A stretch of 64,000 nt of DNA from an uncultured Marinobacterium sp. Lineage in GTDB: Bacteria > Pseudomonadota > Gammaproteobacteria > Pseudomonadales > Balneatricaceae. Positions 3,181-64,000 of the stretch are shown here, one piece after another. The translations under genes were made by a program, and so were the position numbers. A model generated the notes under the pieces. The model was not told the DNA's origin and made no database searches. It saw only the letters and a list, made by a program, of their open reading frames with translations. The number at the start of each line of letters is the position of its first letter. Position 1 is the first letter of the stretch. Where the stretch lies: NCBI GenBank assembly GCA_947501565.1, contig CANMWJ010000002.1, positions 348,016 through 412,015 of the forward strand, read 5' to 3'.

Positions 3181-4077
3181 GTGGATGCCCAAACGACAGA
3201 TGTAGATCGGATTCTCGCACAGGCGGGGAAGATGCCCTTCCTGCAGGGCACTATGTTCCGCTTCAGCCAGATGGATCCGCTGGCCGATAACTTCAGTCAG
3301 GAGATGCTGCGGCTTTGCAAAGCGGACCCTATGCTGGCGCTCTTTCTGTTGCGTCTGGCCAACAGTGGTCGCGGAGCCAAGAATCAACCTGTCACCACCA
3401 TCAACGACGCATTGCGTAAAGTGCGCCCTCAGCGCCTTTTCCATCTGATCGATAGTGCTTCCGTTACTCGAATCTTTAGCCCCTCCAAGCCTGAGTACAA
3501 AGGCCTGTGGCAACACTCTATTGAAACAGCGGTATTTGCCGAGTTCAGTGCACGTAAAATCGAAGGTTTTAGCGTGCCCCCTGCCCTTGCGTACAACGCC
3601 GGGTTTATACACGATATCGGCCGCTTTCTGTTCCTGGAGCATACGCCTCAAACGCTGGATGACACCGAAAAGGTGGGCTGGACAACGCCGATGGAGCTAC
3701 CCGACCTTGAAAGGATGCTTTTAGGGCTCGATCATGCCGAGCTTGGATACCGAGCAGCGGAAAAATGGGGCTTGCCGAACATCCTGCAAAGAATGTTACG
3801 TCACCATCATCACTACGGGCTTTGGTTGGATAGTAACTTCCCTAAGCTCCTGCGTGAGTTGGTGGTGATCGTGCAGTTTGCAGATTTCGTCAGTGTTCTG
3901 GTTGAGAAAGATCCCGATTGGGTAGACTGGAAACCGGCTGCGCTGCGGGAGGCGATCCAGCACCGCTGTGTACACCCAAGTTGGGAGGACGTTCACCTGC
4001 CTGTTGCGGAGATGGCAGACAAGCTGCCTGCTCTGAACCGCGTATGTCAGGAGCGCCTTGCGCTTATCGGCCTGTAA
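3181..4077 (+). CDS. HDOD-domain signal transduction protein
   Basis: Histidine/aspartate-rich HD-related output domain motifs (HDIGRFLF, LDHAELGY). The 3181 start is GTG; an alternative ATG (MPFLQG) at 3232 is possible. Confidence 0.6.
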   Translation: MDAQTTDVDRILAQAGKMPFLQGTMFRFSQMDPLADNFSQEMLRLCKADPMLALFLLRLANSGRGAKNQPVTTINDALRKVRPQRLFHLIDSASVTRIFSPSKPEYKGLWQHSIETAVFAEFSARKIEGFSVPPALAYNAGFIHDIGRFLFLEHTPQTLDDTEKVGWTTPMELPDLERMLLGLDHAELGYRAAEKWGLPNILQRMLRHHHHYGLWLDSNFPKLLRELVVIVQFADFVSVLVEKDPDWVDWKPAALREAIQHRCVHPSWEDVHLPVAEMADKLPALNRVCQERLALIGL

Positions 4078-8052: not shown

Positions 8053-9381
8053 TTAGTGGACGCCGAGCTGGTTTAACCAGCGGGTGATCATAGCTTGCTG
8101 CATGGCTTCGAGCGGTAAGACCGCGAGGGTGTCTTCCAGTGACTGCCCTACCTCGCGCTGTTTTACCGCGTTAACCACCGGTGCCAACTCTATACCTGCC
8201 ATATGCCAGATGCCCAGTGGCTGATCGGGCGTGACCACGACCTCCGCTTTCACAATACGGTTGTCTTGTACCACCGGCATCGCACGAACCTCAAATGCGT
8301 CGAAGTTCTCCGTCTGGTGTAAAGGTTGTGCATCGGGCCACTGACAGCGCTGCTGCCAGAACGGTTGCTCTGGCCACTGGGTTTCCATGCCATAGAAATC
8401 CCGCCCAATACGGGCAAAGCGGTAGAACAGCGCGCTGACACGGGCTTGGTGGAACTGCTTCGCCAGCTCCGCATTATCAGGACTGCTCAGTAGTGTATTG
8501 ATAACGGCGGGTGCCTGCAGCGCAGAGGAGAGTGCCTGAAATATGCCGTTGCCTGAGAGCGGATCCACTGCCATCGCCGCATCCCCTACCCTTATCCAGT
8601 TATCACCCACCACCTCTTCGCAGAGAATCGGCGTACTTGTACGGGCATAGAACTCGCCGGTGGGTTGGGCGTTCTGCATAAAGGGTTGTGCCTGAGGCAG
8701 GCGTTTGAGGCGTTCGATACAGAAATCCAGCATCTCAGCTTTAGGCGGGAGATTGGCGCTTGCAACATCGAAGGTCAGCTGCAGATACCGCTTACCGGTA
8801 TCCGTCATCGCCATCCAGGCCCAGCCATCTTCAAAACTGACCGCTGCGGATTGCGGTACGCAAGCCTCTCCCTGCCAGTACTGCAGCAGCGAAACGGTTT
8901 CGGCGCCGCGCACGCGCGGTAGATGGGCCGACGCTGCGGAACGTCCACGCGCTTCAACCAGGAAATCTGCGGTAATCTGTTGAACCTCGGCATCCCCGCG
9001 GGTTTCGGAAACCTGCACAGCGGGGCCGTCGAGTGAAACGGCTTTTATCCGCGCGTCTATCAGCTCAACGCCAGCGTTTTTCAGATCCTGCCAGATACCG
9101 TAATCAAGCGTCTGGCGATCGATCAGCCGTTCGGTATTGGCACTGTTGCTCTGGCCGTTCCAGGTGGCGTTGCGTGCAGACGGTTGCGCCAGATCTTTCA
9201 GTGCTTCAACAAAACCCGCGGCTCGCAGGCCCTCTATAACCCGATCGGATACGCCCTCTACCGCATCAAAGGGGCGTCGCTGTGCGATCACTGTCACCTG
9301 ATAGCCGAGTCGCACCATTCCTAACGCAACAGCGCCACCAGCGGGACCTGCGCCCAGGACAACAATGCGTTTCGTATTCAT
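8053..9381 (-). CDS. qhpG: FAD-dependent monooxygenase QhpG (hydroxylates the gamma-subunit Trp for cysteine tryptophylquinone, CTQ, formation)
   Basis: N-terminal Rossmann fold KRIVVLGAGPAGGAVA. Sits in an operon with qhpF and qhpE in the QHNDH locus. ATG 9381 (MNTKRIVV) has a GGAAGAG SD; the track GTG is at 9405. Confidence 0.7.
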   Translation of the reverse strand: MNTKRIVVLGAGPAGGAVALGMVRLGYQVTVIAQRRPFDAVEGVSDRVIEGLRAAGFVEALKDLAQPSARNATWNGQSNSANTERLIDRQTLDYGIWQDLKNAGVELIDARIKAVSLDGPAVQVSETRGDAEVQQITADFLVEARGRSAASAHLPRVRGAETVSLLQYWQGEACVPQSAAVSFEDGWAWMAMTDTGKRYLQLTFDVASANLPPKAEMLDFCIERLKRLPQAQPFMQNAQPTGEFYARTSTPILCEEVVGDNWIRVGDAAMAVDPLSGNGIFQALSSALQAPAVINTLLSSPDNAELAKQFHQARVSALFYRFARIGRDFYGMETQWPEQPFWQQRCQWPDAQPLHQTENFDAFEVRAMPVVQDNRIVKAEVVVTPDQPLGIWHMAGIELAPVVNAVKQREVGQSLEDTLAVLPLEAMQQAMITRWLNQLGVH

Positions 9382-9398: not shown

Positions 9399-10112
9399 TC
9401 ACCACTCTTCCTCTTCTGGCCGATAGACACCGGTACGCTGTTCTGCGCCGAAATAACTGGCGTTGGATTTAAGATGTTTGCCCAGTGCAGCGCGTGACGC
9501 TTCAGGCTGAGCAATCAGGAACTGCGCAATATGTCCGCAGATATAGGCTGTGCCGATACTGGCACCCGAGATCTCCCCGTCCAGACAGCGCACATGGGCA
9601 CCAAAGTCAGCGTATTGAGTGCCCAGCAACGACCACTCCTCTGGCGCACAACGTGCATCACCGGTCGTTCGCAGTACGCCGGGATAATGAGAGGGATACA
9701 CGGGGTCGCCTTTGGCTGGCGATGAGGCGCAAAGCAAAACGCCTTTTGCGACTGCTCGCTCAACGGCGTCGCGCAAAACATCGCGGTCAGTACGCAGGCC
9801 AAGGCTGAGGTTGATCACCTGCACGTCCTGCTCGACCAGCCAGTCGATCGCAGAGGCCACCTGTGCGGGCGTAGTGGTAAAGCGTTCGGAAAACACCTGT
9901 GCCATGTAGATCTGGGCCTTAGGCGCTAACCGATGGATCACGTCGACGATCTTGCTGCCATGGCCCAGAGTGTCGAGACTGGCGTCATCCATCCATAGGG
10001 CGTCGTCCTTCAGTACAAAGGCGGCTGAGTCAGTTACAAAGGATGCGTTATAGTCGCGGTAGCCGCTATCGACGATACCTACTTTAACAACCGCATTGCC
10101 CAGGTCAGTCAT
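9399..10112 (-). CDS. qhpE: Subtilisin-like S8 serine peptidase QhpE (gamma-subunit leader peptidase)
   Basis: VGIVDSG (Asp), HGS (His) and a Ser-containing block near the C-terminus. Short (237 aa), as expected for QhpE. Overlaps the qhpF stop by 8 nt. Confidence 0.65.
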   Translation of the reverse strand: MTDLGNAVVKVGIVDSGYRDYNASFVTDSAAFVLKDDALWMDDASLDTLGHGSKIVDVIHRLAPKAQIYMAQVFSERFTTTPAQVASAIDWLVEQDVQVINLSLGLRTDRDVLRDAVERAVAKGVLLCASSPAKGDPVYPSHYPGVLRTTGDARCAPEEWSLLGTQYADFGAHVRCLDGEISGASIGTAYICGHIAQFLIAQPEASRAALGKHLKSNASYFGAEQRTGVYRPEEEEW

Positions 10113-32817: not shown

Positions 32818-32889
32818 AGTTTCAAGATGGGATTTGAACCCATAACAAACGAATTAAGATTCGTCGCTCTCCCGTTGAGCTACTTGAGC
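32818..32889 (-). ncRNA. tRNA-like element A in the rtc operon leader (possible YrlA-type Y-RNA module or tRNA pseudogene)
   Basis: Canonical U8-A9, D-arm GCTC-AACGGGA-GAGC and T-arm ATGGG-TTCAAAT-CCCAT. Anticodon loop is only 6 nt and the acceptor stem has 2 terminal mismatches with no CCA. Confidence 0.4.
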
Positions 32890-32905
32890 CAGTTAACCTG
32901 GCGGG

Positions 32906-32975
32906 TGCTTGAGGTGGGATTTGAACCCACGTCCGACGGGTTTCCCCGCCTGCTCTACCCCTGAGCTACAGAAGC
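32906..32975 (-). ncRNA. tRNA-like element B in the rtc operon leader
   Basis: D-arm GCTC-AGGGGTA-GAGC and T-arm GTGGG-TTCAAAT-CCCAC. 6-nt anticodon loop (GGAAAC), imperfect acceptor stem. Confidence 0.4.
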
Positions 32976-42877: not shown

Positions 42878-45800
42878 ATGATCAATCTGCCCGGCTACCG
42901 GATCCTTAAAAATATCTACCGTGGCCGACGCAGCAGCATCAGCCGTGCCGTGCGTTTGCGCGACAACCTGCCCGTCATCATCAAAACACTGACCACCAAC
43001 CAGCCGAATGCCGATGAGGTCGGCCAGCTTCACCACGAATTTGAGCTGTTAAGCACCCTTGATATTGAGGGTGTTATCAAACCGGTTGCGCAGGAGAAAA
43101 CTGAACCCCAGGTTGCCACCATTTTTCACGACCACGACGGCGTATCGCTGCGTGATCTGATCGAACTGAAGCAGTTCTGCTGGCACGAATGGCTACCCAC
43201 TGCCGTGAGATTGGCGGAGCTGATCGGGCGTGTGCATGACGCCCAGATCATCCATAAGCAGGTGACACCGGATAACATTCTCGTTAACCCGCACACCGGC
43301 GAGTTGCAGATGATCGACTTCACCCAGGCGACCCATCTGCAGAGGGAACAGGCAAGCTGGCACTACAGCCAGATCGACAGCGAAACACTGCCCTATATCG
43401 CGCCGGAGCAGACGGGACGTATCAACCGCGCAATCGACTACCGCACCGATTTCTATGGCCTGGGTGCCACCCTCTATGAGTTGATGACCGGCCGCCCCCC
43501 CTTTCAGGAGGAGGACCGTCTGGCGCTGGTACACAGCCATATCGCCAAACAACCGGTACCGCCCCATGAGATCAACAGCGCGCTGCCGCCGGTAGTTTCC
43601 CAGATCATCATTAAATTGCTGGCAAAGGATGCGTCGGAGCGTTACCAGTCGATCTTTGGGCTGACGCAGGACCTGCGCACCTGTCAGGAGGAGTGGCAAC
43701 GTAACCAGCGCATTGCCAGTTTCAGCATCGCCTCCGATGACCGCTCCGAACGGTTTGTAATCCCTCAGCGTTTGTATGGCCGTGCAACCCTGATAAAACG
43801 GCTGCTAAGCAGCTATGACCGCACCGCGCTGGGTCAGAAAGAGATCATCCTAATCTCCGGCTATGCCGGGATAGGCAAATCCAGCCTGGTGCACGAGATC
43901 CGCCAGTACATCAATGCCCGCGGCGGCAGCTTTATCAGCGGTAAATTTGACCAGTTCCGTCGCAACCGTCCCTACGCTGCAATCCTGTTTGCGTTACAGG
44001 GCCAGATTCGTCAGCTGCTTACCGAATCGGAATCCAGCATTCATACCTGGCGAATACGCCTGCTTGAAGCGCTGGGTGATAACGCGCAGGTATTTATCCG
44101 CCTGATCCCGGAATTGGAACTGATCATCGGTAAACAACCCGATGCGCCCAAGCTATCGCTGGCCGAGGAGCAGAACCGTTTCTCGCACCTCTTTATTCGC
44201 TTGTTGCGAACCCTGGCCACAGAAGAACGCCCGCTGGTGTTGTTCCTTGATGATCTTCACTGGGCCGATCTGGCGTCGATCAGCCTGATCAACACGTTGG
44301 CACGCAACGATCAGCTGGGCCACCTGATGCTGGTTGGCAGTTACCGTGATCAGGAGGTCAGCGCTACTCACCCTCTGAGTACCACCTTTGCCAAGTTACG
44401 TGATGGCAGGGTTAACCTGCGCGAACACCGGCTTGAGCCCCTTACCCTATCGCAGGTAAATCAGCTGATCGCCGATACCCTGCATGTAACGCCGGATCGC
44501 TGCGCCTCACTGGCGCATATCAGCATGGAGAAAACCCAGGGTAACCCGTTTTTCCTCAACCAGTTTCTGGCGGCACTCTACGAGGATGGGCTGATCTACT
44601 TCGCACAGGGTCACTGGTGCTGGGATGAGGACCGGATTCGCGATCAGGAGATGACCGATAACGTGGTCGACCTGATGGTGGGCAAGATCCAGAAGTTATC
44701 GCCAAACACCCAGAAAATCTTGCAGATGGCCGCCTGTATCGGTAGCCCTTTTACGCTGCGTATTCTATCGATCGTGCATGAACGCACACCTCAGGATACT
44801 GCCGCAGACCTCTGGCAAGCGATGGCGGAGCGACTGATACTCCCGCTGGACAACAGTTATCGCCTGCACCCGCAGGGAGATGCGGCGGCGTCACGCTACC
44901 GCTTTGTACATGACCGTGTGCAGCAGGCTGCTTATAGCCTGATCAGTGACGATGAGCGTTTGCCACTGCACCTGAAGATCGGTCGACTGGCGCTGGATCA
45001 GTTTGCCCCTGAGGAGTTTGAGAACCGTATTTTCGAGGTTACCAACCACCTCAATATCGCCGCAGATCTGATTACCGAACCCGATCATCGGCTGCAGCTT
45101 GCAGAGTTAAACCTCAAAGCAGGCGTGGTTGCACGGGATGCCGCTGCATTTGAAGCAGCTTACGAGTACTTCAATACCGGGCTGGAGATGTTGCCCGCCG
45201 ACTGTTGGCAAACGCACTACGAACTCAGCCTGGCGCTTCACACCAATGCGACGGAAACAGCGTATATTCGCTCCGACTTCAGTCAGCTGGAGACACTGGT
45301 CGGCATCGTACTGGAGCACGCCCAGAGTCTGCTGGAGAAGGTACGGCTGTATGAGATCCTGATCCAGGCACATGTGTCGCGCAATGAGTTCGAAACTGCG
45401 CTGGATACGGCGTTGCAGGTGCTGGATCTGCTCGACATCAAAATCCCGAAACATCCAGGGGCGATATATACCTGGCTGACACAAAGTAAGACTCATCTGC
45501 AGTTGAAACGTCTGCCAGCCAACCGCGTGATGCAGATGCCCGCGATGGATAACCCCAACATACTGGCCGCCCTGCCGATTATGGCAAGTATGTTTGGCGC
45601 CATTAAGTTCTCAAGCTCCGAACTACGTCCGCTGATCATGGCGAAGCAGGTAGACCTGACCCTGCGTTACGGGTTGAGCCCCTCCTCCGCACAGGCGTTT
45701 GCGGGTTACGGTGGTGTCCTCTGCGGCAAGTTTAACGATCTGGATCAGGGCTACGCCCTTGGTCAGGCGGCGCTGGCGATCGATGACCGACTGCCATCGC

Positions 45801-48800
45801 GGCTTACCCACCACAAAACGCTGTCACTCCATAACGCCTATATCCGTCACTGGAAAGAGCCGCTGTCAGCGTGTCTCGATTCCCTGAAAGAGGGGTACCA
45901 CCTGGCGCTGGATTGCGGTGATATCGAATGGGGTACCTACTGCATCGCGGCCTACATCCAGTACCGCTTTACCCTGATGGAGGATCTGGATAAGAGCCAA
46001 TCTGAGCTTGAGCCGTACATGCTCAAAATGCAGGAGAGTGGCCAGAAGCAATCTGAAGAATATTCTCGCTTAGCTCTGCAAGCTATTGATTGTATTCAAG
46101 GTAATAGTGATTCTCCTGTCGAGATGAACGGCCGGTTCTACAATGAGGAATCAGCGCTTGCAGACTATCAGGAGAACAATCACCGTACAGCGGTCTGTGT
46201 CCATCATTTCTACAAGGCATTCCTGCACTACATCATGGGTGAAACCACACAGGCAGCCCAACACGGTCGTATTGCTGAAGAGTATATCTCCTCGATCTAC
46301 GGTACCTACACACAACCGTGGCTACTGTTTGTTTCTGCAATGGCTCACCTTTCAGAGGTGCCAGACGCCAGCATCCTGCATCAACAGACGCTACTGAGCC
46401 ATGCACGCCACATACTCAAGCGAACCCGTTATTGGGCGCGCCACAGTCCCGTCAACCATCATCACCATGCGTGTATGCTGGAGGCTGAGATAGCACGTGT
46501 GACCAAGCGCTATACCAAAGCGATGGACCTTTATGAGATTGCGATCAGCGCCTGTCAAAACAGCGAAAACAACTTTGATGTTGCGATCACCTACGAGCAG
46601 GCCGCAAAGCTGTATCTGGAATGGGACAAGAAACAGATCGCCCGCAACTATCTGAAGGAATCCGTCTCTGTCTATCGCAGGATCGGCGCAACGGCGAAAG
46701 TCGATCAGATGTATCGTGTTTATGCCGATCTGCTGGAGCAAACAGACAGCAGTGCCACGACCACTCAGCCCTACCGTAACGGTGTTAGTAGCCCTAGCAG
46801 TCCGAATAATCAGGAGATCGACATCACATCGGTGATCAAGGCATCCCATGTGATCGCGGATGAGATCGTACTGGACCGCCTGTTGAGTCGGCTGATGAAG
46901 CTGGCGCAGGAGAACGCTGGGGCGCAGCGCTCCATTCTGGCCCTGAAGCGTGACCTGGAACTCTGCATCGAGGCGGAAGCCAGTCTGGATAGCGATACCC
47001 GTTTCTTCGCGGGCACGCCGCTCGATCAGGGTTTCGACATTCTGCCCGTCAATATTGTGCATTACGTCGCACGCACCAAGGAGACGGTGGTGCTGGGGAA
47101 CGCGCTGGAACATGAGATGTTCATGCACGACCGCTACATCCGGGAACATAACCCACGCTCTCTGCTCTGCATGCCGATTCTTTACCACGGTGAACTGACG
47201 GCAGTGCTCTATCTGGAGAACAACGAAAGTTCGGACGTGTTTAACCGGGAGCGTCTGGAAACCCTACAGATTTTGTCGGCACAAGCGGCGATCTCGATTG
47301 AAAACGCCAAGTTATATTCCAGCCTCCAGCAGTCTGAACAGGAGTTTCGATCGCTGTTTGAGAACGCGGTAGAGGGGATCTTCCGCGCAACACCCGATGG
47401 CACCTTTGTGTCTGCCAACCCCGCGCTTGCGCAGATTCTCGGTTACGCCTCGCCGGATAAGTTTCTTAAAGCGATTACCGATATCGCCAGCCAGTGCTTT
47501 GAAGACCCGGCATCCCTTGAGCATTTCATGTCGTTCCTGAATACCGATAACGAAGTGATCAACTTTGAAACCCGGTGGCTGGATGCCAACAAGCAGCCGC
47601 TGGATGTATCGATCTCCGCCCATCGGGTGCTGAACGATCAGGGAACGGTGCTTTACTACGAGGGCTCGTTGACCGATATCAGTGAGCGTAAGAGCCGAGA
47701 GGTTGCCGAGCAGGAACGTCTTGCCGCTATCGTGGCACAGGAGAAAGCTGAAGCAGCAAGTGATGCTAAGTCGCAGTTCCTGGCTACCATGAGCCACGAG
47801 ATCCGGACGCCGATGAACGGCATTCTCGGTATGGCGCAGCTGCTGGAGCGGGGTCACCTTTCGGAAGAACAGCGCAATCAGGTACGGGCGATCTACCGCT
47901 CGGGGCAGTCGTTGCTGTCGATTCTCAACGATGTATTGGATTTCACCAAAGTAGAGGCCGGCCAGGTAACCCTGGAAGCCCACCCATTTACGCTGAAAGC
48001 ACTGGTCGATGAGAACGAAGCGATATTAAAGCCTCTGGCAGAAGATAAGGGGCTGGACCTGATCGTACGCTACGATACGGCGTTGCCGGATATGATCGTT
48101 GGTGACCGTCGCCTGCTTAACCAGATTCTGATGAACCTGTGTGGCAACGCCCTGAAGTTTACTGATCAGGGTTTTGTCGCTCTGCGCGCACGTCTGGTCA
48201 GCCGAAGCAGCGATTCAGCTCTGATTCGCTTTGAGGTCGAGGACAGCGGTATCGGGATTGCGACCGACGCTCAGGAGCGCATCTTTGAACACTTCAGTCA
48301 GGCCGACAGCTCTATCACCCGCCGTTTCGGCGGAACCGGGCTGGGGTTATCGATCTGTAAACGACTGGTCGAGCAGCAGCAGGGCCAGATCGGTTGTGAC
48401 AGCACCGCAGACAAAGGCAGCTTGTTCTGGTTTGAGATCCCCTTCCCGGTTGCCAGTGATACCGTTGCATATTCTTCCCAGACGGCAGATGCCGCACCTA
48501 TGACGCCAAAGCAGATCCTGCTGGTCGAGGATACGGAGATTAACCAGCAAGTGACCGCCGGGTTGCTGGAAGCGGACGGCCATCAGGTAACCATAGCCGA
48601 CGACGGTTATACCGCCCTCTCCCTGCACAGCGATAACCACTATGACCTGATTTTGATGGATATCCATCTACCGGATATGGACGGTATGGAAACCACCCGC
48701 CGTATGCGCAGCCATCCCAATGCTGACAAAGCGGCAGCGAAGATCGTCGCGTTTACCGCGTCAATCACTGAGGAGGAGATCCATAACTATTTTGAAGCGG

Positions 48801-49300
48801 GTGTCGACGATGTGCTGGCGAAACCTTTGCAATATGAAGAGTTGCGTCGAATGCTGAAAGAAGATGACCACTACGAGTCTCTGCCTCAGCAGACGGTGTC
48901 GCCCGTCGATTGCGCTATCACGCAAAGTGAAAAATATTCATCCCCTTCAGATAACGATCTTCTCAATCTCAATTTGCTTAATCAACATCAAACGATGCTA
49001 GGTCAGGAACGCTTTAACACGCTTATCGACCAGTACAAAACACAGGCAAACGACCTCTTCAGTCAGCTGGAGGACGCCGGACGGCGAGGCGACCGCGGAA
49101 AGGTGCGCCAGGTTGCGCATAAACTTGCCGGCGCCAGTTCTAATTTTGGTTTGGAAAAGCTCAGCGCGATCAGCAAGTTAATAGAAGATGGGTGCGAGTT
49201 CCCCGGCGATCACGATTTTATTTCACAGATAGAGAGCGCCCACGAAACCTATAATGAGAGCATTACTGAGCTGACATGCTTCGTAAATGACGCAACGTGA
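42878..49300 (+). CDS. 2140-aa multidomain sensor: Ser/Thr protein kinase - AAA/STAND ATPase - TPR-like region - GAF - PAS - HisKA/HATPase - REC - HPt (hybrid histidine kinase)
   Basis: Kinase subdomains ([26 protein letters not shown]). P-loop [14 protein letters not shown]-box [10 protein letters not shown], with N (NLCGNALKF) and G boxes ([15 protein letters not shown]). REC domain ([10 protein letters not shown]...[14 protein letters not shown]). C-terminal HPt ([11 protein letters not shown]). Confidence 0.85.
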
Positions 49301-49432
49301 ATAACCTTACAGTTTGTAACGTTTAGGAACATTGATCGCTTTCTTTATGACACTTTTGAATAAGATTTATACAGCTGTGGTGGTATAGTGTTAAACGCAG
49401 GTATCAAACACCTGTTTAGGATATGAAACAGC

Positions 49433-49540
49433 CAGATCCTCTCTCGACAAGGCAAACCCCGAGCGATCGGGGGACGCAAAGTCACGGGTCCCTAGGGAAT
49501 TAAGCAGTAAGGGATAGCCGGACCACCGAAGGAGAGCCTC
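49433..49540 (+). promoter_or_regulatory. c-di-GMP-I (GEMM) riboswitch candidate
   Basis: CCTCTCTCGACAA-GGCAAACC-CCGA(GCGA)TCGGG-GGACGCAAAG-TCACGGGTCCC...GCCGGACCACCGA-AGGAGAG. Conserved GGCAAACC, GNRA-capped P1b, ACGCAAAG junction and ACGGGYCC, with P1 closure by CTCTC/GAGAG. Lies 55 nt upstream of ORF 49596. Confidence 0.65.
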
Positions 49541-56740: not shown

Positions 56741-57640
56741 CTATCGGGCGGTACGCCAGAAACGACGGTTGTTGATGCTCAGGATCACACCGTCTTTGGT
56801 AATCTCCTGCAACACCAGGCCGCGTTCGATGGTATCCCCCTCCCCTAAACGCTTACCGTTGATCTTAACCATGCGCGACCTTGGCGTTTTGGAGAAGATA
56901 TGAACGGTAAAATTTAGCTCAGGGATCGTGCGCTGCACGTTGACCGGGAGCTGCTTCTGATGAGGAATGCCGTTGTACGGGTCAGGTTGTGCGGGTGCTG
57001 GAGCCGGTACCGGCTTGGCAGGTGATGCGTCGGCCAGCGCACCCACTGATGCCGCCAGCTTTTTAACCACTTCGGGTTTACTGGCTGATGCAGGCGTAGC
57101 TTTCGCGACCGTAGGTCTGGGTGGGGGTGGGGCTGTCTGAGTTGGCCTGGTGCTACGGGGAGGCGCAGAACTGCTGGTAAGCTGGTCCCGAATGGCGTTC
57201 TCAGCATAACGGGTGGGAGCGACCGACATATCGTTAGCACGCGCGCTGGCCGTACGGATCTTAACGTTCTCAACCTCCGCCAGTGCTTCTGCTGACAACA
57301 ACCAGTCATCATTGCGCAATGGGGGTTCTACCGCGGTAATGGGCAATGGAACGCTCATGCTCGAATTGGCCTGGGGTGCTACTGGGATTGGTTGCACCTC
57401 CGTCCTCACTGGTGCCGCCTGTGTCGGCGTTTCTGATGACTCAGTTAACGTCGCATAGATTCCCGCACTGCTTACCGCCAGGATAGTCACAGCCAACGCC
57501 ACGACCCCCGCCCACATATAGGGGATTGGCCTGCCATCCCGGGTCTCTACCAGCTGTAATGGTTGCGTACGGAGATCGGGAATTTCACCTCTATGGCGGT
57601 CACGATCCGAGTGTTTCAGTGCATCGAGAATATATGACAT
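56741..57640 (-). CDS. gspB: GspB/ExeB-like type II secretion assembly protein
   Basis: N-terminus MSYILDALKHSDRDRHRG matches the GspB family. TM segment then a Pro/Ala-rich periplasmic region. Directly follows gspA. Confidence 0.65.
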   Translation of the reverse strand: MSYILDALKHSDRDRHRGEIPDLRTQPLQLVETRDGRPIPYMWAGVVALAVTILAVSSAGIYATLTESSETPTQAAPVRTEVQPIPVAPQANSSMSVPLPITAVEPPLRNDDWLLSAEALAEVENVKIRTASARANDMSVAPTRYAENAIRDQLTSSSAPPRSTRPTQTAPPPPRPTVAKATPASASKPEVVKKLAASVGALADASPAKPVPAPAPAQPDPYNGIPHQKQLPVNVQRTIPELNFTVHIFSKTPRSRMVKINGKRLGEGDTIERGLVLQEITKDGVILSINNRRFWRTAR

Positions 57641-57642
57641 GG

Positions 57643-59316
57643 TTAGGCGCCTCCCTGCTTATCTTGCAGTTGAGGCACATCACTCGATGAAACCGAGTTC
57701 AGCAGAATCGCCGTATGTGGTCCAACCACCCCATCGGGCACCAGTCCATGGCTGGTCTGGAAACGTTTCACCTGCCTGACAAGGCCACTGTCGTAGGTCT
57801 GCAAGCGGAAATAACGTGGCGCCCGGCTCTGGGCCAGCGCCAACTGACGATCCAGCCAGATCACTTCAGGGCCTGTCGTACCGGGATGAATAGGCGCCTT
57901 GTAGTGCTCGGGTACCCGCCACACCACCGTATATTTGCCGACTACCCAGAGCTTCAGGTCTTCAACCTTAACACGGCGTATTTCGCCAGCGATGGAGACA
58001 CGAGCGATACCCTCTTCAACACCAATCAACGTGGCAAAAAAGTTTTGCCCTTTGGCGTTAAACAGATTAATCACTGCCGGACGGTTCAGGTTGATCAGCT
58101 CTTCCAGGCTGCCGATATTAAAGAGGCATCGTAGACCATTTGTCTGGGCAAAGCGGCACACCGCCGGTTGTTTGCGCGGCTCATACGTAAGGTTCCATTC
58201 CGCCATGAGGGTCTTGTACGCCTGTACTTCGGTTCGGGCGGTATCGGTTCCGGTAGGCCACTGCCAGTTGGCTGGATTAGACAGTTCCTGCCCCCGCGTT
58301 ACTGTAGGCTGGGATGCTTGAAGTGACTCAGCCTTGCTGATGCCGGTGTTTATCAGCTCACTGGTTACGTTTTGCGCGGACTGAATCAGCTGATTTTCAG
58401 GCAACGCGCTATACACCGTCGCACCCAACCCTACTGCCAGCAGTAAAGAAGCCGCTAAAGCCACAGGTCGGGTGATTCGGCGCTTGCCACTGGCGAGACC
58501 ATGCGACGCGCCTTCACCAAATACTTCGTTGGCGGCTTTGCCCAGCGTATTCTCTTCGACACGGTTCTCCCTTTGAACATAAGCACCGAGCAACGCCCGG
58601 TCACAGATTATGTTTACTAAGCGCGGAATCCCCTGAGTGAGCTTATACAGACGCTTAATCGATGAGGGCGGAAATAGCTGACCATCCACGCCGGCGACAG
58701 ATAAGCGATGTGCGATATAGGCCGGCAACTCCTCCTGGGAGAGCGCGTGGAGATGGTAGCGTGCGGTAATCCGCTGGTTGACCTGACGAAGCTCCGGTTT
58801 CGAGAGCTTTTCAAGCAGTTCCGGCTGACCGATCAATATGATCTGCAGCAGCTTCTGCGTGTTGGTTTCCAGATTCGTCAGCAAACGTATGGTTTCTAAT
58901 ACCTCAACTGACAGGTTCTGGGCTTCATCGATAATCAGTACCGTATGCCTGCCTGCCCGATGATTGGCGAGAAGGTGCTCGTTGATCGCATCAACATACT
59001 CCTTTAACTCACCATCTTTCGGGCAATTTATCAGCAGATCGTCGCAAATCGCATCCAAAAGCTCTGTGGCGCTGAACTGCGGATTAAGAACGAATGCGAC
59101 CTCGGTGTTTTCCGGTAACTGTTCCAGTAAGCAACGTGACACCGTGGTTTTACCGGTACCCACTTCGCCAGTGAGCAGGACAAAGCCACCGTTACTGTTT
59201 ATGCCATAGAGAAGATGAGCAAGAGCCTCGCGGTGTTGCTCACTCATATAAAGGAAGCGCGGATCGGGCGCGATCGCGAAAGGCGGTTCTGATAATCCAA
59301 AGTAGTTGCTGTACAT
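57643..59316 (-). CDS. gspA: GspA/ExeA-like AAA ATPase with C-terminal peptidoglycan-binding domain
   Basis: MYSNYFGLSEPPF...LLTGEVGTGKTT has an ExeA N-terminus and Walker A. TM segment. C-terminal PG-binding motif FQTSHGLVPDGVVGPHT. AAGGGG SD at ATG 59316; the track ORF begins at 59358. Confidence 0.75.
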   Translation of the reverse strand: MYSNYFGLSEPPFAIAPDPRFLYMSEQHREALAHLLYGINSNGGFVLLTGEVGTGKTTVSRCLLEQLPENTEVAFVLNPQFSATELLDAICDDLLINCPKDGELKEYVDAINEHLLANHRAGRHTVLIIDEAQNLSVEVLETIRLLTNLETNTQKLLQIILIGQPELLEKLSKPELRQVNQRITARYHLHALSQEELPAYIAHRLSVAGVDGQLFPPSSIKRLYKLTQGIPRLVNIICDRALLGAYVQRENRVEENTLGKAANEVFGEGASHGLASGKRRITRPVALAASLLLAVGLGATVYSALPENQLIQSAQNVTSELINTGISKAESLQASQPTVTRGQELSNPANWQWPTGTDTARTEVQAYKTLMAEWNLTYEPRKQPAVCRFAQTNGLRCLFNIGSLEELINLNRPAVINLFNAKGQNFFATLIGVEEGIARVSIAGEIRRVKVEDLKLWVVGKYTVVWRVPEHYKAPIHPGTTGPEVIWLDRQLALAQSRAPRYFRLQTYDSGLVRQVKRFQTSHGLVPDGVVGPHTAILLNSVSSSDVPQLQDKQGGA

Positions 59317-59573
59317 GGCAAATACCCCTTGGTTACAGATACAAATATAGAACCGCACCAGAAGAAATGCTCAGTATTTGTACAGCAGTAATTACACATA
59401 CCAGGGAAATATATTCATGAAACTAACAGATCTAACTGCAATGTAACGCATGTTTAATAGCAGTGTATTGCATCGTTTTCACATCCCGCTTTCTATCTGA
59501 CAACTACAATTAACGTAACCATTAGCTGTGTACTTATTAATCAATCGTCCACCTTTTACAACAGGCGACAGCT

Positions 59574-60965
59574 ATGAACCCCGTCAAACAACTCGCTCAC
59601 AGGGATGATGGAGGCATCCGCAAAGCGCTGTACGTAGACTTAGCGGAATATCACCCGAGCAACATAGATAACTTTCATTTTTCAGACTGGGCGTTGGATC
59701 GCGTGACATCTCCCCCGCGCGCCCACGACCATATTCACAACTATCAATATCTGGTGGGATTGGTTTATCTGAGCCACCTCACGGATAAACAACGGCAACA
59801 GGTAATCGACATTGTCAGTCGGGAGTACAACACCATCTGGATCGCGCTGGTCGAACACAACGACCTTCTTGATGCGAACTTCCAGCGTATGATCTGTTGT
59901 AACTTTTACGACTACTTCACACTACCGCTGGACAACAACCTTAACTATCTAAAGGCGACCTTAGGGCACGCTTACGGTATTGCGATGCTTCGTTCGCTGG
60001 AGGCACAGACCAGCCCCGACATGGACCAGGCGGAGATGGTCGGCGCCAGTGAACCGATGCGGCAGGTATTTAACGAGATCCGTAAGGTCGCGAACGTAGA
60101 TGCCCCCGTTATGATCGGTGGCGATACCGGGACCGGTAAGGAGATGGTCGCACGGGCCATTCATCAGCGCTCCACCCGTAATGAGGGGCCCTTTGTCGCC
60201 GTAAACTGCGGTGCCCTGCCCGATACGCTGATTCACGCGGAACTGTTCGGATACGAAAAAGGTGCGTTTACCGGTGCCTATAAACGTAAGATCGGGCGTA
60301 TCGAATCGGCGCAAAACGGCACCATCTTTCTCGACGAGATCGGCGACCTGCCGCTTGAGCTTCAGGTATATCTGCTGCGCTTCTTAGAACAGAAAACCAT
60401 CGAACGGCTGGGCGGTAACGAAAGTCAGCGTGTGAATGCACGTGTGATCGCAGCCACCCATATCGATCTGGAAAAAGCCGTTGAAGAGGGCCGTTTCCGG
60501 GAAGACCTCTACTACCGGTTAAATGTCCTTAACATCCAGATGCCAACGTTGGCGGAACGTTTTGAAGACATTGAGCTGCTCGCCCGCTATTTCTTCAAAA
60601 AGTTCTCCCATGAGTATGAAACCCATGTTGAAGGCTTCTCGAAACAGGCGATCGACGCGATGAATAAGCACAGCTGGCCGGGCAACATCAGGGAGATGCT
60701 TAACCGCGTAAGACGTGCCTTAGTGATGAGTGAGAACCGCCTGATTACACCGGGGGATCTTGGTCTTGGCCAGGGAGAGGAGCAACTGGAGGTGATGTCA
60801 CTGGATGAAGCGCGTAATCACGCCGAGATGCTGGCCGTAAAAAGCGGACTGCACTTCTCCCACCACAACATCACCCAGACCGCAAAGATTCTGGGTGTGT
60901 CCCGCGTCACCCTTTATCGCCTGATCGAAAAATACGGGCTCAAGAAAAATGTTTCAGCACCTTAA
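59574..60965 (+). CDS. Sigma-54-dependent transcriptional activator with uncharacterised N-terminal sensor domain (no REC)
   Basis: GDTGTGKE, GAFTGA and ESELFGY motifs. C-terminal HTH ITQTAKILGVSRVTLYRLI. Confidence 0.8.
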   Translation: MNPVKQLAHRDDGGIRKALYVDLAEYHPSNIDNFHFSDWALDRVTSPPRAHDHIHNYQYLVGLVYLSHLTDKQRQQVIDIVSREYNTIWIALVEHNDLLDANFQRMICCNFYDYFTLPLDNNLNYLKATLGHAYGIAMLRSLEAQTSPDMDQAEMVGASEPMRQVFNEIRKVANVDAPVMIGGDTGTGKEMVARAIHQRSTRNEGPFVAVNCGALPDTLIHAELFGYEKGAFTGAYKRKIGRIESAQNGTIFLDEIGDLPLELQVYLLRFLEQKTIERLGGNESQRVNARVIAATHIDLEKAVEEGRFREDLYYRLNVLNIQMPTLAERFEDIELLARYFFKKFSHEYETHVEGFSKQAIDAMNKHSWPGNIREMLNRVRRALVMSENRLITPGDLGLGQGEEQLEVMSLDEARNHAEMLAVKSGLHFSHHNITQTAKILGVSRVTLYRLIEKYGLKKNVSAP

Positions 60966-61074
60966 CAAAACTGCGCGGCGCTGACGCCGCGCAAATTCTT
61001 AACTCATTGAATTTCAGTAACTTTCATTAATGGCTTAAAGGTTGCTTAATTACCTGTAGGGGACGGAGGTAATT

Positions 61075-61386
61075 ATGCGACATAGCCCTGACAACAGAAA
61101 ACGTCATCAAGACGACGAGGCCGGATCCGGACAACACGCTGGACGACTGCCGGCCAACCACACCGTTAGGGTTGAGCATAACCTTTCGACCTCATCGCCC
61201 TACCTTGTCCCCTCTTTCCGGAGCCGCTCCCGAAGGCTCCTTCATCAGCGCGTTCACTACAGTTCCGGCCCAATTATCCTTCTGTGGGATGAAATTGATG
61301 AACGCCTGCCCTCAACCGACGAAGGCCAGATCTATGAAAACGGCCTGACCCACTCGGATGAAGACGATACAGATCAAGACATTTAA
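61075..61386 (+). CDS. Hypothetical small acidic/low-complexity protein
   Basis: Strong GGAGG SD 7 nt upstream of the ATG. No similarity recognised. Confidence 0.25.
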   Translation: MRHSPDNRKRHQDDEAGSGQHAGRLPANHTVRVEHNLSTSSPYLVPSFRSRSRRLLHQRVHYSSGPIILLWDEIDERLPSTDEGQIYENGLTHSDEDDTDQDI

Positions 61387-61826
61387 AAGACGCCTAAAAA
61401 GTTCCGCATGAACTGATCATTTTTCATTCAATAAAATTGAATTTATATTCCACAACTGTATAAGACATGATCAGTTGTAAATGATAGGATGCGCACCGTT
61501 TATACAGTTTACAGCGTGTAAAGCAGCCGAGATGGGTGACTACGTTGTGGGGAACAGCTGTTAACCTGAGGTGCCGGACTTGGGTAGGGTAGTCTGGCAA
61601 TCAGCGTTAAAGCACATGTTGTTCGTGCTGATCTGCACCCCACTATGGTCCCGTAGCACTCTCCCCTCGCCGCTTCACCGCCCCGAATGACTTACATTCA
61701 TCCACCTTGGACAAGGAAGGTCAGCGGGCACAGTGATGTTATCTGGATGCAGGGTTCTCACGACGAGATAAGTCCATTCGGTTAAACGCCTGCGGGAAAA
61801 CAGTACCGCAGTGTTACATCGGAAAG

Positions 61827-61925
61827 ATCCTCTCCGGATAAAGGCACAGCCTGTGAAAGCAGGTGTCGCAAAGTTACGGGTCCCATCTTTGTTGTGGGGA
61901 CGGCCGCACTGCCCATGGAGAGCAT
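61827..61925 (+). promoter_or_regulatory. Second c-di-GMP-I (GEMM)-like riboswitch candidate
   Basis: CCTCTCC-GGATAAA-GGCACAGCC-TGT(GAAA)GCAGG-TGTCGCAAAG-TTACGGGTCCC...GGAGAG shares P1, the GNRA hairpin, the CGCAAAG junction and the ACGGGTCCC block with the element at 49433. Lies 65 nt upstream of ATG 61988. Confidence 0.5.
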
Positions 61926-61987
61926 ACCCTCGCTGATCAGTACGTAGTTTGAGGATCTTTCGCAATTTTTTTAATGCGGAGATTCTT

Positions 61988-64000
61988 ATGACGCGTTGCG
62001 CGCCTTCACATCTGCTGGCCACCCTCGGCCTGAGTTCTGCCCTACTGCTTACACCGGGTTTTGCTGTAGCAGCCCAGCACGATAACCACGCTGGACACAA
62101 TCACGCCCATGGCAAAACACCTGATTTCGCACAATCTGCGCTGAACCGTGCTCAGGCAACCGCAGCAACCACAGACCTCATCAACGCCCGTAAAGCCTGG
62201 GCGCAGTCCCGTGGTGCTGCTAACAAAGAAGCAACGCTGGAAAAGCTGATTGCTAAGGCCGAAGCACGCCGTGAGAAACTCGCACAGCTGGTACGTCAAA
62301 ACCCGGCGGCGGCTATTGGCCTCGCACTCAACGAAGATCTACGTAACAGCATGCCCGCCGAAGTACAGGAAAAGCTGGAACAAAAGCTCGACGTACAAGG
62401 CACATTGGAATCTACCTACGAACACTTTGACGATGGCAGCTATCAGCTACGCCAGTTTGTGACCACAGCATCCGGTGAGCGCTTTGAGCTGCATACCGCG
62501 GGCAAACACAAAGAAGTTCTCACCGGACAGCAGGCTCAACTGAACGGTTTGTTGATCGGCGGCGACAGCGAGACCGACGGCCAGATTGCGATCGCGTCCG
62601 CTGACGATATCCTCACCATGGGTGCTACCGGTGGTGACAACGGAGGTACACCAGGGCCTCTGCCCAATGCATTTGGTGAGCGCAAGGTTGCTGTCATCAT
62701 GGTGAACTCCCAGGATGCGACAGACACCCCATGGACCAAAGCCCAGCTGCAGGATATGTTTTTCAATCAGGCCAGCGACTTCTTCCATGAAAACTCCTAT
62801 GGCCAGACCTGGCTGACCGGTGACGTACTTGGCTGGTACACCCTGCCGATCGATACTGCGTCCAGCTGCCCAAGCAACTTCACCGATGTCGCCGATGCCG
62901 AAGTCGCCGCCTCCGGTGTTGATCTTTCAGCATACGGCCACCTTGTCTATATCATCCCAACGACCAGCCGTTGCGCGAGCGACTCCAGTAACGTTGGCGG
63001 TGCACCTTCGCGCACTCGCATCCGTTCTGCGGACAGCATCCGCGTGGTCACCCATGAGTTGGGCCACGCACTGGGCCTTGGGCATGCCAATGCACTCGAT
63101 TGCGAAGGTGACGTGCTTTCTACCAACTGTAAGGACGCGGCCTACGGCGATATCTACGATGTCATGGGCAAAAACTTTGGCCATCTGAACGCGTTCAATA
63201 AACAAAAGCTCGGTTGGCTTGGTTACAACCAGTCACCCCCGGTGACCACAGTAACCACTGATGGTACCTACGAGATCGCACCATTGGAGAGCAACGATGG
63301 TCGCAGCAAAGCGCTTAAAATCTTCAAAGGGGTTGATTCCGCGACCGGCAAGAACAGCTGGTACTACCTGGAATACCGTCAGCCGATCGGCTTCGATGCG
63401 CTGCTGTTTGAACCAGAGCCGTACTACTACCCGGAGCAGCTTGAAAACGGTGTGGTGGTCCATACCGGTGTAGACGGTGCGTACTACAGCTACATGCTCG
63501 ATATGACACCCGACAGCTCACCCATCTCAGTATATGACCTGCAGGACCCTGTACTGGAGATCGGTAACAGCTATACAGACTCAGACGCGGGCGTAACCAT
63601 TACGCCGGTTGCCAGCGATAACAGCGGCATTACCGTGAGCATCAGCTTCACCAATGGCGGTGGTGGCGGTGACACTGGAGGCAGCACCAATACAGCACCA
63701 GTGGCAGCAAACGACACTGCCAGCACTCAGGAAGGTAACGCGGTTACCATCCCAGTGTTGTCTAACGACTACGATGCTGACAGCGACAGCCTGAGTATTA
63801 CCGGTACCAGCGGTGTTAACGGCAGTGCGCAGATCTCCGGCGGTAACATTGTCTTTACACCTAGCTACGGATTCAGCGGTACTGAGACCTTCAGTTACAG
63901 CATTTCCGATGGTAATGGCGGCAGTGACACCGCTACTGTCAGCGTAATCGTTGAAAGTGTTGCAACGAATACCGCACCTGTAGCGGCTAACGACAGTGCC
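61988..64000 (+). CDS. Secreted zinc metalloprotease-like protein (HExxHxxGxxH metzincin motif) with C-terminal cadherin-like/VCBS repeats; 3' end beyond window
   Basis: Open frame from ATG 61988 to the window end, absent from the ORF track because there is no stop. GGAG SD. Signal peptide, His-rich HDNHAGHNHAHG, HELGHALGLGHA, then repeats NTAPVAANDTASTQEGNAVTIPVLSNDYDADSDSL... Confidence 0.7.
   Translation, partial: MTRCAPSHLLATLGLSSALLLTPGFAVAAQHDNHAGHNHAHGKTPDFAQSALNRAQATAATTDLINARKAWAQSRGAANKEATLEKLIAKAEARREKLAQLVRQNPAAAIGLALNEDLRNSMPAEVQEKLEQKLDVQGTLESTYEHFDDGSYQLRQFVTTASGERFELHTAGKHKEVLTGQQAQLNGLLIGGDSETDGQIAIASADDILTMGATGGDNGGTPGPLPNAFGERKVAVIMVNSQDATDTPWTKAQLQDMFFNQASDFFHENSYGQTWLTGDVLGWYTLPIDTASSCPSNFTDVADAEVAASGVDLSAYGHLVYIIPTTSRCASDSSNVGGAPSRTRIRSADSIRVVTHELGHALGLGHANALDCEGDVLSTNCKDAAYGDIYDVMGKNFGHLNAFNKQKLGWLGYNQSPPVTTVTTDGTYEIAPLESNDGRSKALKIFKGVDSATGKNSWYYLEYRQPIGFDALLFEPEPYYYPEQLENGVVVHTGVDGAYYSYMLDMTPDSSPISVYDLQDPVLEIGNSYTDSDAGVTITPVASDNSGITVSISFTNGGGGGDTGGSTNTAPVAANDTASTQEGNAVTIPVLSNDYDADSDSLSITGTSGVNGSAQISGGNIVFTPSYGFSGTETFSYSISDGNGGSDTATVSVIVESVATNTAPVAANDSA

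Follow-up and report, generated by a model that had tools for sequence, protein, structure and literature searches.

A c-di-GMP-I riboswitch aptamer in the leader of a secreted metalloprotease gene from Marinobacterium and its proposed translational OFF switch

We analysed a 64,000-nucleotide (nt) stretch of DNA from an uncultured Marinobacterium sp. (contig CANMWJ010000002.1, positions 348,016 to 412,015; hereafter the window), in which an initial annotation had placed a second, somewhat divergent cyclic di-GMP (c-di-GMP) aptamer of class I before the gene of a secreted metalloprotease with cadherin-like repeats. This proposal was borne out by a match to the corresponding Rfam family, by covariation in 27 relatives and by the pairing of the element with the same gene in at least five genera. 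The complete aptamer, including its closing helix P1, lies at 61825-61922 on the + strand and is almost certainly a functional c-di-GMP-I (GEMM-I) aptamer; its 3' end is 65 nt from the protease start codon at ATG 61988, with both on one strand. On balance, we favour a reading of the whole leader as a translational OFF toggle, in which c-di-GMP binding would hide the ribosome-binding site of the protease gene. The element is an added member of a thoroughly known riboswitch class and as such is ordinary to specialists.

Identity was examined with the covariance models of 4227 Rfam families across the 64-kb window. The search with RF01051 (c-di-GMP-I), which had been called for before it was run, gave a match at 61833-61916 (+) of 53.6 bits against a gathering score of 35 (E = 1.1e-7), with model positions 1-87 complete. 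Our own subfamily model, R1, scored the window element at 104.3 bits, with the sequence itself among the R1 training copies, and no third aptamer copy was found in the window with R1. The sole other riboswitch match in the Rfam scan was at 49442-49531. Weak antisense matches to RydC (E = 0.79) and RgsA (E = 9.1) at relaxed thresholds were dismissed as chance.

The anatomy of the element follows the class closely, and all of the motifs listed in the initial annotation were located, these being CCTCTCC (61829-61835), GGAGAG (61917-61922), the GAAA loop (61855-61858), CGCAAAG (61867-61873) and ACGGGTCCC (61876-61884). The 5' strand of P1, CUCUCCGG, spans 61830-61837 (+), with C61830-C61835 pairing with G61917-G61922, and G61836 and G61837 pairing with C61914 and C61913, respectively. 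The first hairpin, P2 (61844-61869, +), has the closing pairs G61844-C61869 and C61845-G61868, an internal loop, a 6-bp stem and a GNRA loop (GAAA, 61855-61858), and an AAA linker at 61870-61872, invariant in the relatives, joins it to the second hairpin, P3 (61872-61910, +), which in the RF01051 alignment is short and carries a bulge at G61902-G61903. In the same alignment the 11-nt GAAA-tetraloop receptor is absent from P3, the model positions CUAA and part of UAUG being deleted. Alignment to the Rfam models places the equivalents of G20, A47 and C92 of the Vc2 RNA at G61843, A61870 (the first base of the AAA linker) and C61912, all on the + strand, and we take A47 to be a ligand-contacting nucleotide in the Vc2 structure. 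G20, in contact with the ligand's G-alpha base, discriminates between c-di-GMP and cyclic GMP-AMP (cGAMP), and C92 makes a Watson-Crick pair with the G-beta base (PMC6140456). Because the canonical ligand-contacting nucleotides are present, c-di-GMP binding would be expected.

The structure is supported by compensatory change throughout. In 27 copies (24 distinct) aligned to the canonical structure, standard pairs occupied 92.9% of cells and compensatory changes were seen at 22 of the 29 pairs (24 distinct relatives), as against ~40% paired and only 3-7 pairs with compensatory change when partners were slid by 1-3 columns; fitting the alignment to the model biases it towards the structure, but the contrast with the slid controls is large all the same. 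Four of the eight P1 pairs had changed on both sides (for example CUCUAC/GUAGAG at L068:7606), all six pairs of the P2 stem covaried, and compensatory changes were found at 12 of the 13 pairs of P3. Amid this variation, the equivalent of A47 was A in all 26 relatives with a letter at that position, and the equivalent of C92 was likewise C in 26 of 26.

The regulated gene begins at 61988 (+) and runs to 64000, extending past the end of the window. As had been claimed from the sequence, its open reading frame (ORF) encodes an exported metzincin with cadherin-like repeats: from ATG 61988 it contains HELGHALGLGHA and Big_9/Cadherin_5 repeats, and the full-length protein, P0001 (100% identity over the query), is a secreted zinc metalloprotease of 858 amino acids with a signal-peptide-like N-terminus, the motif HELGHALGLGH and three tandem-95/Big_9/cadherin-like repeats. 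Profile matches were to Peptidase_M11 (25 bits, cutoff 21), Big_9 (81 bits) and tand_rpt_95 (148 bits). The start (61988-61990, +), with its Shine-Dalgarno (SD) sequence GGAG at 61978-61981, agrees with orthologue N-termini, which align from this ATG. The nearest named relatives of P0001 are from Pontibacterium, Amphritea, Aliamphritea and Marinobacterium, and point to an Oceanospirillaceae-like marine gammaproteobacterium as the probable source of the DNA; P0013 is a paralogue on the same contig.

The association of riboswitch and protease is conserved in at least five genera. An RF01051 match lies ~70-90 nt upstream of the start in 8 of 8 protease genes (orthologues or paralogues at six loci in four named genera) and ~135 nt upstream of the protease start in Pseudomonas sp. 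SP16.1. A metagenome search with an 18-base DNA pattern returned 63 loci, with a real aptamer in only ~20 and chance matches making up the remainder, and found the arrangement of riboswitch and protease on about a dozen contigs. Not every homologue shows the association: that of Vibrio parahaemolyticus lacks a riboswitch match, and R1 finds a riboswitch at only 1 of 46 distant-homologue loci (L006) among the matches listed from the protease-alignment contig search, a count that says nothing on generic GEMM-I RNAs since R1 is tuned to this subfamily. In two of the genomes with paired paralogues, the leaders, riboswitches and signal-peptide regions are near identical within each genome (L048:3400-4001 versus 8626-9183, and L050:3780-4100 versus 9404-9730), and the mature proteins match P0001 at only ~40-58%, which points either to gene conversion or to strong selection acting on the 5' regions.

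Between the aptamer and the gene we identified a platform of three pairing partners. An anti-sequestor strand, GAAAGAUCCUC (61822-61832, +), combines the 8 nt that precede P1 with the opening 3 nt of its 5' strand; it is perfectly complementary (11/11 bp) to the switching, or middle, element GAGGAUCUUUC at 61951-61961 (+), with which it makes an 11-nt perfect inverted repeat. The middle element can instead pair with the SD region, in a hairpin at 61950-61988 (+; 61950-61964 with 61975-61988) that covers GGAG and the A of the AUG. Two strands stand out for their constancy. Among 9-10 orthologous copies AGAUCCUCUC, at the aptamer's 5' edge, never varies although the surrounding stems do, and GAGGAUCUU (9 nt, 61951-61959), ~30 nt 3' of the aptamer, is invariant in 9. 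We attribute this to the two partners that each invariant strand has, one of which is obliged to remain a Shine-Dalgarno sequence.

Both alternative pairings are conserved across copies. The anti-sequestor duplex has an energy of -14.8 to -19.5 kcal/mol in 14 copies, and the long-range helix is present in the unconstrained minimum free energy structure of most. The SD hairpin of the window, at -13.6 kcal/mol (z = -4.2 versus shuffles), recurs in 12 of the 13 copies with a defined start (-9.5 to -18.2 kcal/mol), and its inner stem covaries (CGCAA/UUGCG, CUGAA/UUCAG, GUUA/UAAC, CCUG/CAGG and GCAUU/AAUGC). Likewise, the SD flanks are altered in several copies (GAGAUUC, GAGGUCC, GAGAGACC, GGGAUCC and GAGAUCUUU), yet the pairing is kept, and Pseudomonas sp. 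SP16.1 (L119) has GAGGAACUU as its middle element with GCCUC as the SD flank. In ViennaRNA ensembles, enforcing the aptamer made an unpaired SD less probable, with a fall from 0.23 to 0.01 in the window, from 0.21 to 0.01 in L048b, from 0.31 to 0.01 in L061, from 0.15 to 0.02 in L052 and from 0.40 to 0.07 in L068a.

From these features we propose the following mechanism, for which the transcript would have to start upstream of 61822, as it presumably does. In the ligand-free state, GAAAGAUCCUC, which overlaps the outer three base pairs of P1, would pair with GAGGAUCUUUC and the SD would stay accessible (ON). Binding of c-di-GMP at the P1/P2/P3 junction would lock P1 and so withdraw CUC from the anti-sequestor helix, and the freed GAGGAUCUU would then fold onto GGAGAUUCU in the local hairpin 61950-61988, burying both the SD and the A of the AUG (OFF). 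High c-di-GMP would thus repress the protease at translation initiation. That control is exerted at this step is very probable, and the OFF direction is likely, with a precedent in the class I riboswitch Cdi-1-12 of Clostridioides difficile, which represses the secreted zinc metalloprotease ZmpI (PMC6200980).

Several observations weigh against this OFF toggle. The anti-sequestor helix overlaps P1 at C61830-C61832 only; alongside a full P1, 8 bp of it could persist, and in ViennaRNA L052 prefers to keep this remnant when only P1 is forced. Modelled SD accessibility is almost unchanged in L051, L050a, L107 and the window element at 49434, the invariance of both switching strands leaves the long-range helix without covariation, and the single-sequence folding energy does not stand out from that of shuffles (aptamer, z = -0.04; whole leader, z = -1.0). 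Furthermore, a direct pairing between the 5' arm and the SD (UCUCCG/CGGAGA) is feasible, which permits the same aptamer to be read as a translational ON switch: UCUCCG (61831-61836) would pair with CGGAGA (61977-61982) in the absence of ligand, and a ligand-stabilised P1 would free the SD. The complementarity is 83% over 12 nt (61831-61842 versus 61971-61982), including the 6-bp core; the P1 3' strand GGAGAG is itself SD-like, therefore pairing of the 5' arm with the SD is possible in every copy, and an adjoining VpsR-like activator suggests a biofilm-associated locus and hints that it is perhaps induced, not repressed, at high c-di-GMP. Against this, the competitor GAGGAUCUUUC offers 11 perfect pairs to 6 and is nearer, the invariance of GAGGAUCUU and the conserved, covarying local SD hairpin would go unexplained, and the aptamer-enforced models bury the SD rather than free it, which leaves an ON switch unlikely. 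Still less probable is control of transcription through intrinsic or Rho-dependent termination. Terminators occur in 78 of 322 GEMM-I members (PMC1950547), in the window GAGGAUCUUUC is followed by GCAAUUUUUUU, and P1 is followed directly by a U-run in at least one relative from metagenomes (L086); however, a terminator scan found no terminator-like site within 61200-62200, the U-run of the window falls within the SD hairpin's loop and has no counterpart in the orthologues (ACCCAAU, CACACUA and similar), and the conserved hairpin ends at the SD/AUG in every copy. In L086 itself (3913-4001, -), which has the same 5' arm, AGATCTTTTTTCTTTTT stands directly 3' of the P1 3' strand, suggesting that this lineage has a different, termination-type platform.

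At the level of the aptamer, we considered whether the element could be a GEMM-I specificity variant for 3'3'-cGAMP or another dinucleotide. The linker of GEMM RNAs is 'virtually always AAA' and the internal loop of the first hairpin is 'highly conserved' (PMC1950547), and in the window this loop (61846-61848 and 61865-61867) reads ACA/GUC where the consensus is AAA/GAC. The receptor is also missing, and at relaxed thresholds the orphan variant family RF03167 (c-di-GMP-I-GGC) scored 55.7 bits, slightly above the 53.6 bits of RF01051. However, cGAMP-sensing GEMM-Ib RNAs are defined by A in place of G20 (PMC6140456), and this position is G in the window (61843) and in 27 of 27 relatives, which speaks against the GEMM-Ib alternative raised in the initial annotation; position 47 is A, as against G in the RF03167 consensus, and C92 is retained. 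The receptor is found in only ~50% of GEMM RNAs and hence is not obligatory (Weinberg et al. 2007, PMC1950547). As for the loop, the two differing positions that the initial annotation had noted between the elements of the window are there, in the variant strings GGCACAGCC (61843-61851) and GTCGCAAAG (61865-61873), but they fall in the middle of the P2 internal loop, where no ligand contacts are made. C61867, at the outer position, is retained and invariant, while the middle positions vary widely among relatives, with at least seven forms in copies of equal gene context (AAA/GAC, ACA/GUC, AAC/GGC, CAU/AAC, AAU/AGC, AAG/UGC and ACG/CAC); since copies with the same gene context differ in this way, the divergent positions are lineage noise and signal no specificity change. 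A switch of ligand is thus very improbable. A decayed or non-functional relic, to which the off-consensus loop and the unexceptional single-sequence folding energy might point, is scarcely credible, given that in at least five genera the element precedes this gene at the same distance, with compensatory changes in every helix and invariant ligand-contact nucleotides. Thermodynamic analysis of single sequences yielded no signal, be it for the aptamer, the entire leader or the upstream leader; the comparative evidence alone is informative.

Membership of RF03167 was also rejected for the window element, with its 55.7 bits below the gathering threshold of 59 and an A at 61870, not G. The consensus of this family, GACGCGAAG, differs from that of RF01051, GACGCAAAG, in a G after the P2 closing pairs, and comparison of the two consensus lines leads us to infer that 'GGC' refers to positions 20, 47 and 92. 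The diagnostic position is A in the window element, in the riboswitch at 49434-49536 (61.2 bits with RF03167) and in L006 (75.3 bits), and judged by their binding-site nucleotides all three are canonical c-di-GMP-I RNAs. Their likeness to RF03167 comes from a compact P3 that is common to both, not from the diagnostic nucleotide. The L006 match (2759-2841, on a contig binned as Candidatus Binatia) precedes the gene of a distantly related homologue of this protease. Calls to the 'GGC' variant can therefore fall on RNAs with the canonical diagnostic nucleotide, which is a caution for automated annotation.

The first riboswitch of the window spans 49434-49536 (RF03167 match 49442-49531, 61.2 bits versus the threshold of 59), with a platform that reaches to ATG 49596 and repeats the design seen at 61825-61922: a 5' arm AGATCCTCTC, a GAGGATC middle element and an SD hairpin. 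The P1 arms had been described as common to both elements, and this stands for the 5' arm AGATCCTCTC and the 3' arm GGAGAG, but the arm at 49434-49536 reads CCTCTCT and not CCTCTCC. It precedes a secreted protein of 101 amino acids of unknown family, a 346-amino-acid ORF and a ChaN-like protein. The gene on its 5' side (42878-49300, +), which ends 134 nt before this riboswitch, encodes a 2140-amino-acid multidomain sensor with Ser/Thr kinase, STAND ATPase, TPR, GAF, PAS, histidine kinase, receiver and Hpt domains. Elsewhere in the window, two adjacent tRNA genes were found at 32822-32975 (-), with RF00005 at 45.8 and 45.2 bits.

Upstream of the protease riboswitch lie a GspB-like gene (56741-57640, -), an ExeA/GspA-like ATPase (57643-59358, -), a sigma-54 enhancer-binding protein with a VpsR domain (59574-60965, +) and an ORF of 103 amino acids with no family match (61075-61386), and the gene order of these surroundings is kept in Amphritea, Aliamphritea and Pseudomonas sp. 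SP16.1. A sigma-54-like promoter, TGGCTTAAAGGTTGCT, is situated at 61031-61046, just 3' of the VpsR-like gene and 5' of the 103-amino-acid ORF; sigma-54-type matches also occur at L050:2948 and L052:3220, between the VpsR-like gene and the small ORF. A sigma-54 promoter directly upstream of the window aptamer was considered and rejected, there being no GG-N10-GC match in 61390-61830. In L050, TGGCAT/C-N5-ATGCT occurs 138 nt upstream of each of two aptamers.

The region between the small ORF and the aptamer had been called free of ORFs, and nothing convincing is encoded there, but mechanical ORFs of 41-141 amino acids overlap on both strands. Nor are these ~430 nt featureless: 61400-61824 (+), a stretch of leader or promoter conserved upstream of the aptamer, shows 72-80% identity between genera (to two copies in L048 and to L053 and L061), and a block at ~61440-61530 is near invariant and more conserved than the aptamer itself. 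RNAalifold pairs the conserved block (~61470-61530) with a second block at ~61690-61750, with many G-U pairs; 91% of the predicted pairs hold in all five sequences versus ~40% when slid, and 18 have compensatory changes, the structure being derived from the same five sequences used to score the pairs. Single-sequence folds do not reproduce it, with unremarkable z-scores on both strands, and 61400-61824 matched no Rfam family. Using nhmmer with a leader profile, homologues were limited to the five loci, L001 and part of L052, and L120 is an Amphritea-type copy that does not have the conserved leader.

The upstream block is also rich in DNA palindromes, which are possible operators. One of these, TTACAGCGTGTAA (TTACA-N3-TGTAA), lies inside the conserved block at 61509-61521, and this pattern occurs exactly twice in the window (61509-61521 and 49307-49319) versus 0.06 expected, at 316 and 127 nt upstream of the respective riboswitch aptamers, making it a candidate shared operator. 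The 430 nt may thus be structured leader RNA or promoter/operator DNA. That the riboswitch is only the 3' third of a larger regulatory leader, with a long-range helical domain upstream, is a tentative and rather doubtful suggestion. If the region were transcribed and structured, a c-di-GMP riboswitch would work in tandem with an RNA domain that is new, and the VpsR-like sigma-54 activator, if it acts here, would place one secreted protease under yet another layer of second-messenger control. We regard the conserved upstream leader as the most interesting loose end of the locus.

The window element leaves knowledge of the riboswitch class itself unchanged. It adds a well-supported c-di-GMP-I riboswitch set for the little-studied marine Oceanospirillaceae, tied to one target, a secreted M11-like metalloprotease with cadherin-like repeats, whose gene neighbours a VpsR-like regulator and accessory genes of type II secretion. 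The three-partner platform leads to a simple prediction, namely that c-di-GMP turns the protease off at translation. If true, this would parallel the control of ZmpI in C. difficile and fit with repression of matrix- or adhesin-cleaving proteases in the sessile state.

Known examples of GEMM-I from Vibrio cholerae are Vc2, upstream of tfoY, and Vc1, upstream of gbpA. The window element resembles these and the RF01051 family in its P1 and two hairpins, the GNRA loop on the first hairpin, the AAA linker and the equivalents of G20, A47 and C92, and, like Vc2 and Vc1, it belongs to the 5' leader of a gammaproteobacterial gene whose product is secreted or surface-located. It departs from the GEMM-I consensus in its short P3 with no 11-nt receptor and in its ACA/GUC loop in place of AAA/GAC, and from Vc2 and Vc1 in a lineage-specific platform, an invariant AGAUCCUCUC ... 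GAGGAUCUU ... SD, known here from sequence. With c-di-GMP-I-GGC (RF03167) it has in common the compact second hairpin without a receptor and the explicit P1, but it has A where that consensus has G after the P2 closing pairs. The GEMM-Ib cGAMP riboswitches of Geobacter (Gs1761) are alike in overall fold and belong to the same Rfam clan, but they carry A at G20 (PMC6140456), where the window element and all of its relatives have G. Closest in its target is Cdi-1-12 of C. difficile, likewise a class I c-di-GMP riboswitch before the gene of a secreted zinc metalloprotease (zmpI, encoding PPEP-1), the expression of which is lowered by c-di-GMP (-31- to -63-fold; PMC6200980), the same direction that we infer for the window. 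However, the C. difficile host is a Firmicute, the window protease is M11-like with cadherin-like repeats and unrelated to PPEP-1, and the effect of Cdi-1-12 is seen at the transcript level, the class I switches of C. difficile being generally 'off', whereas in Marinobacterium repression would come through sequestration of the Shine-Dalgarno sequence.

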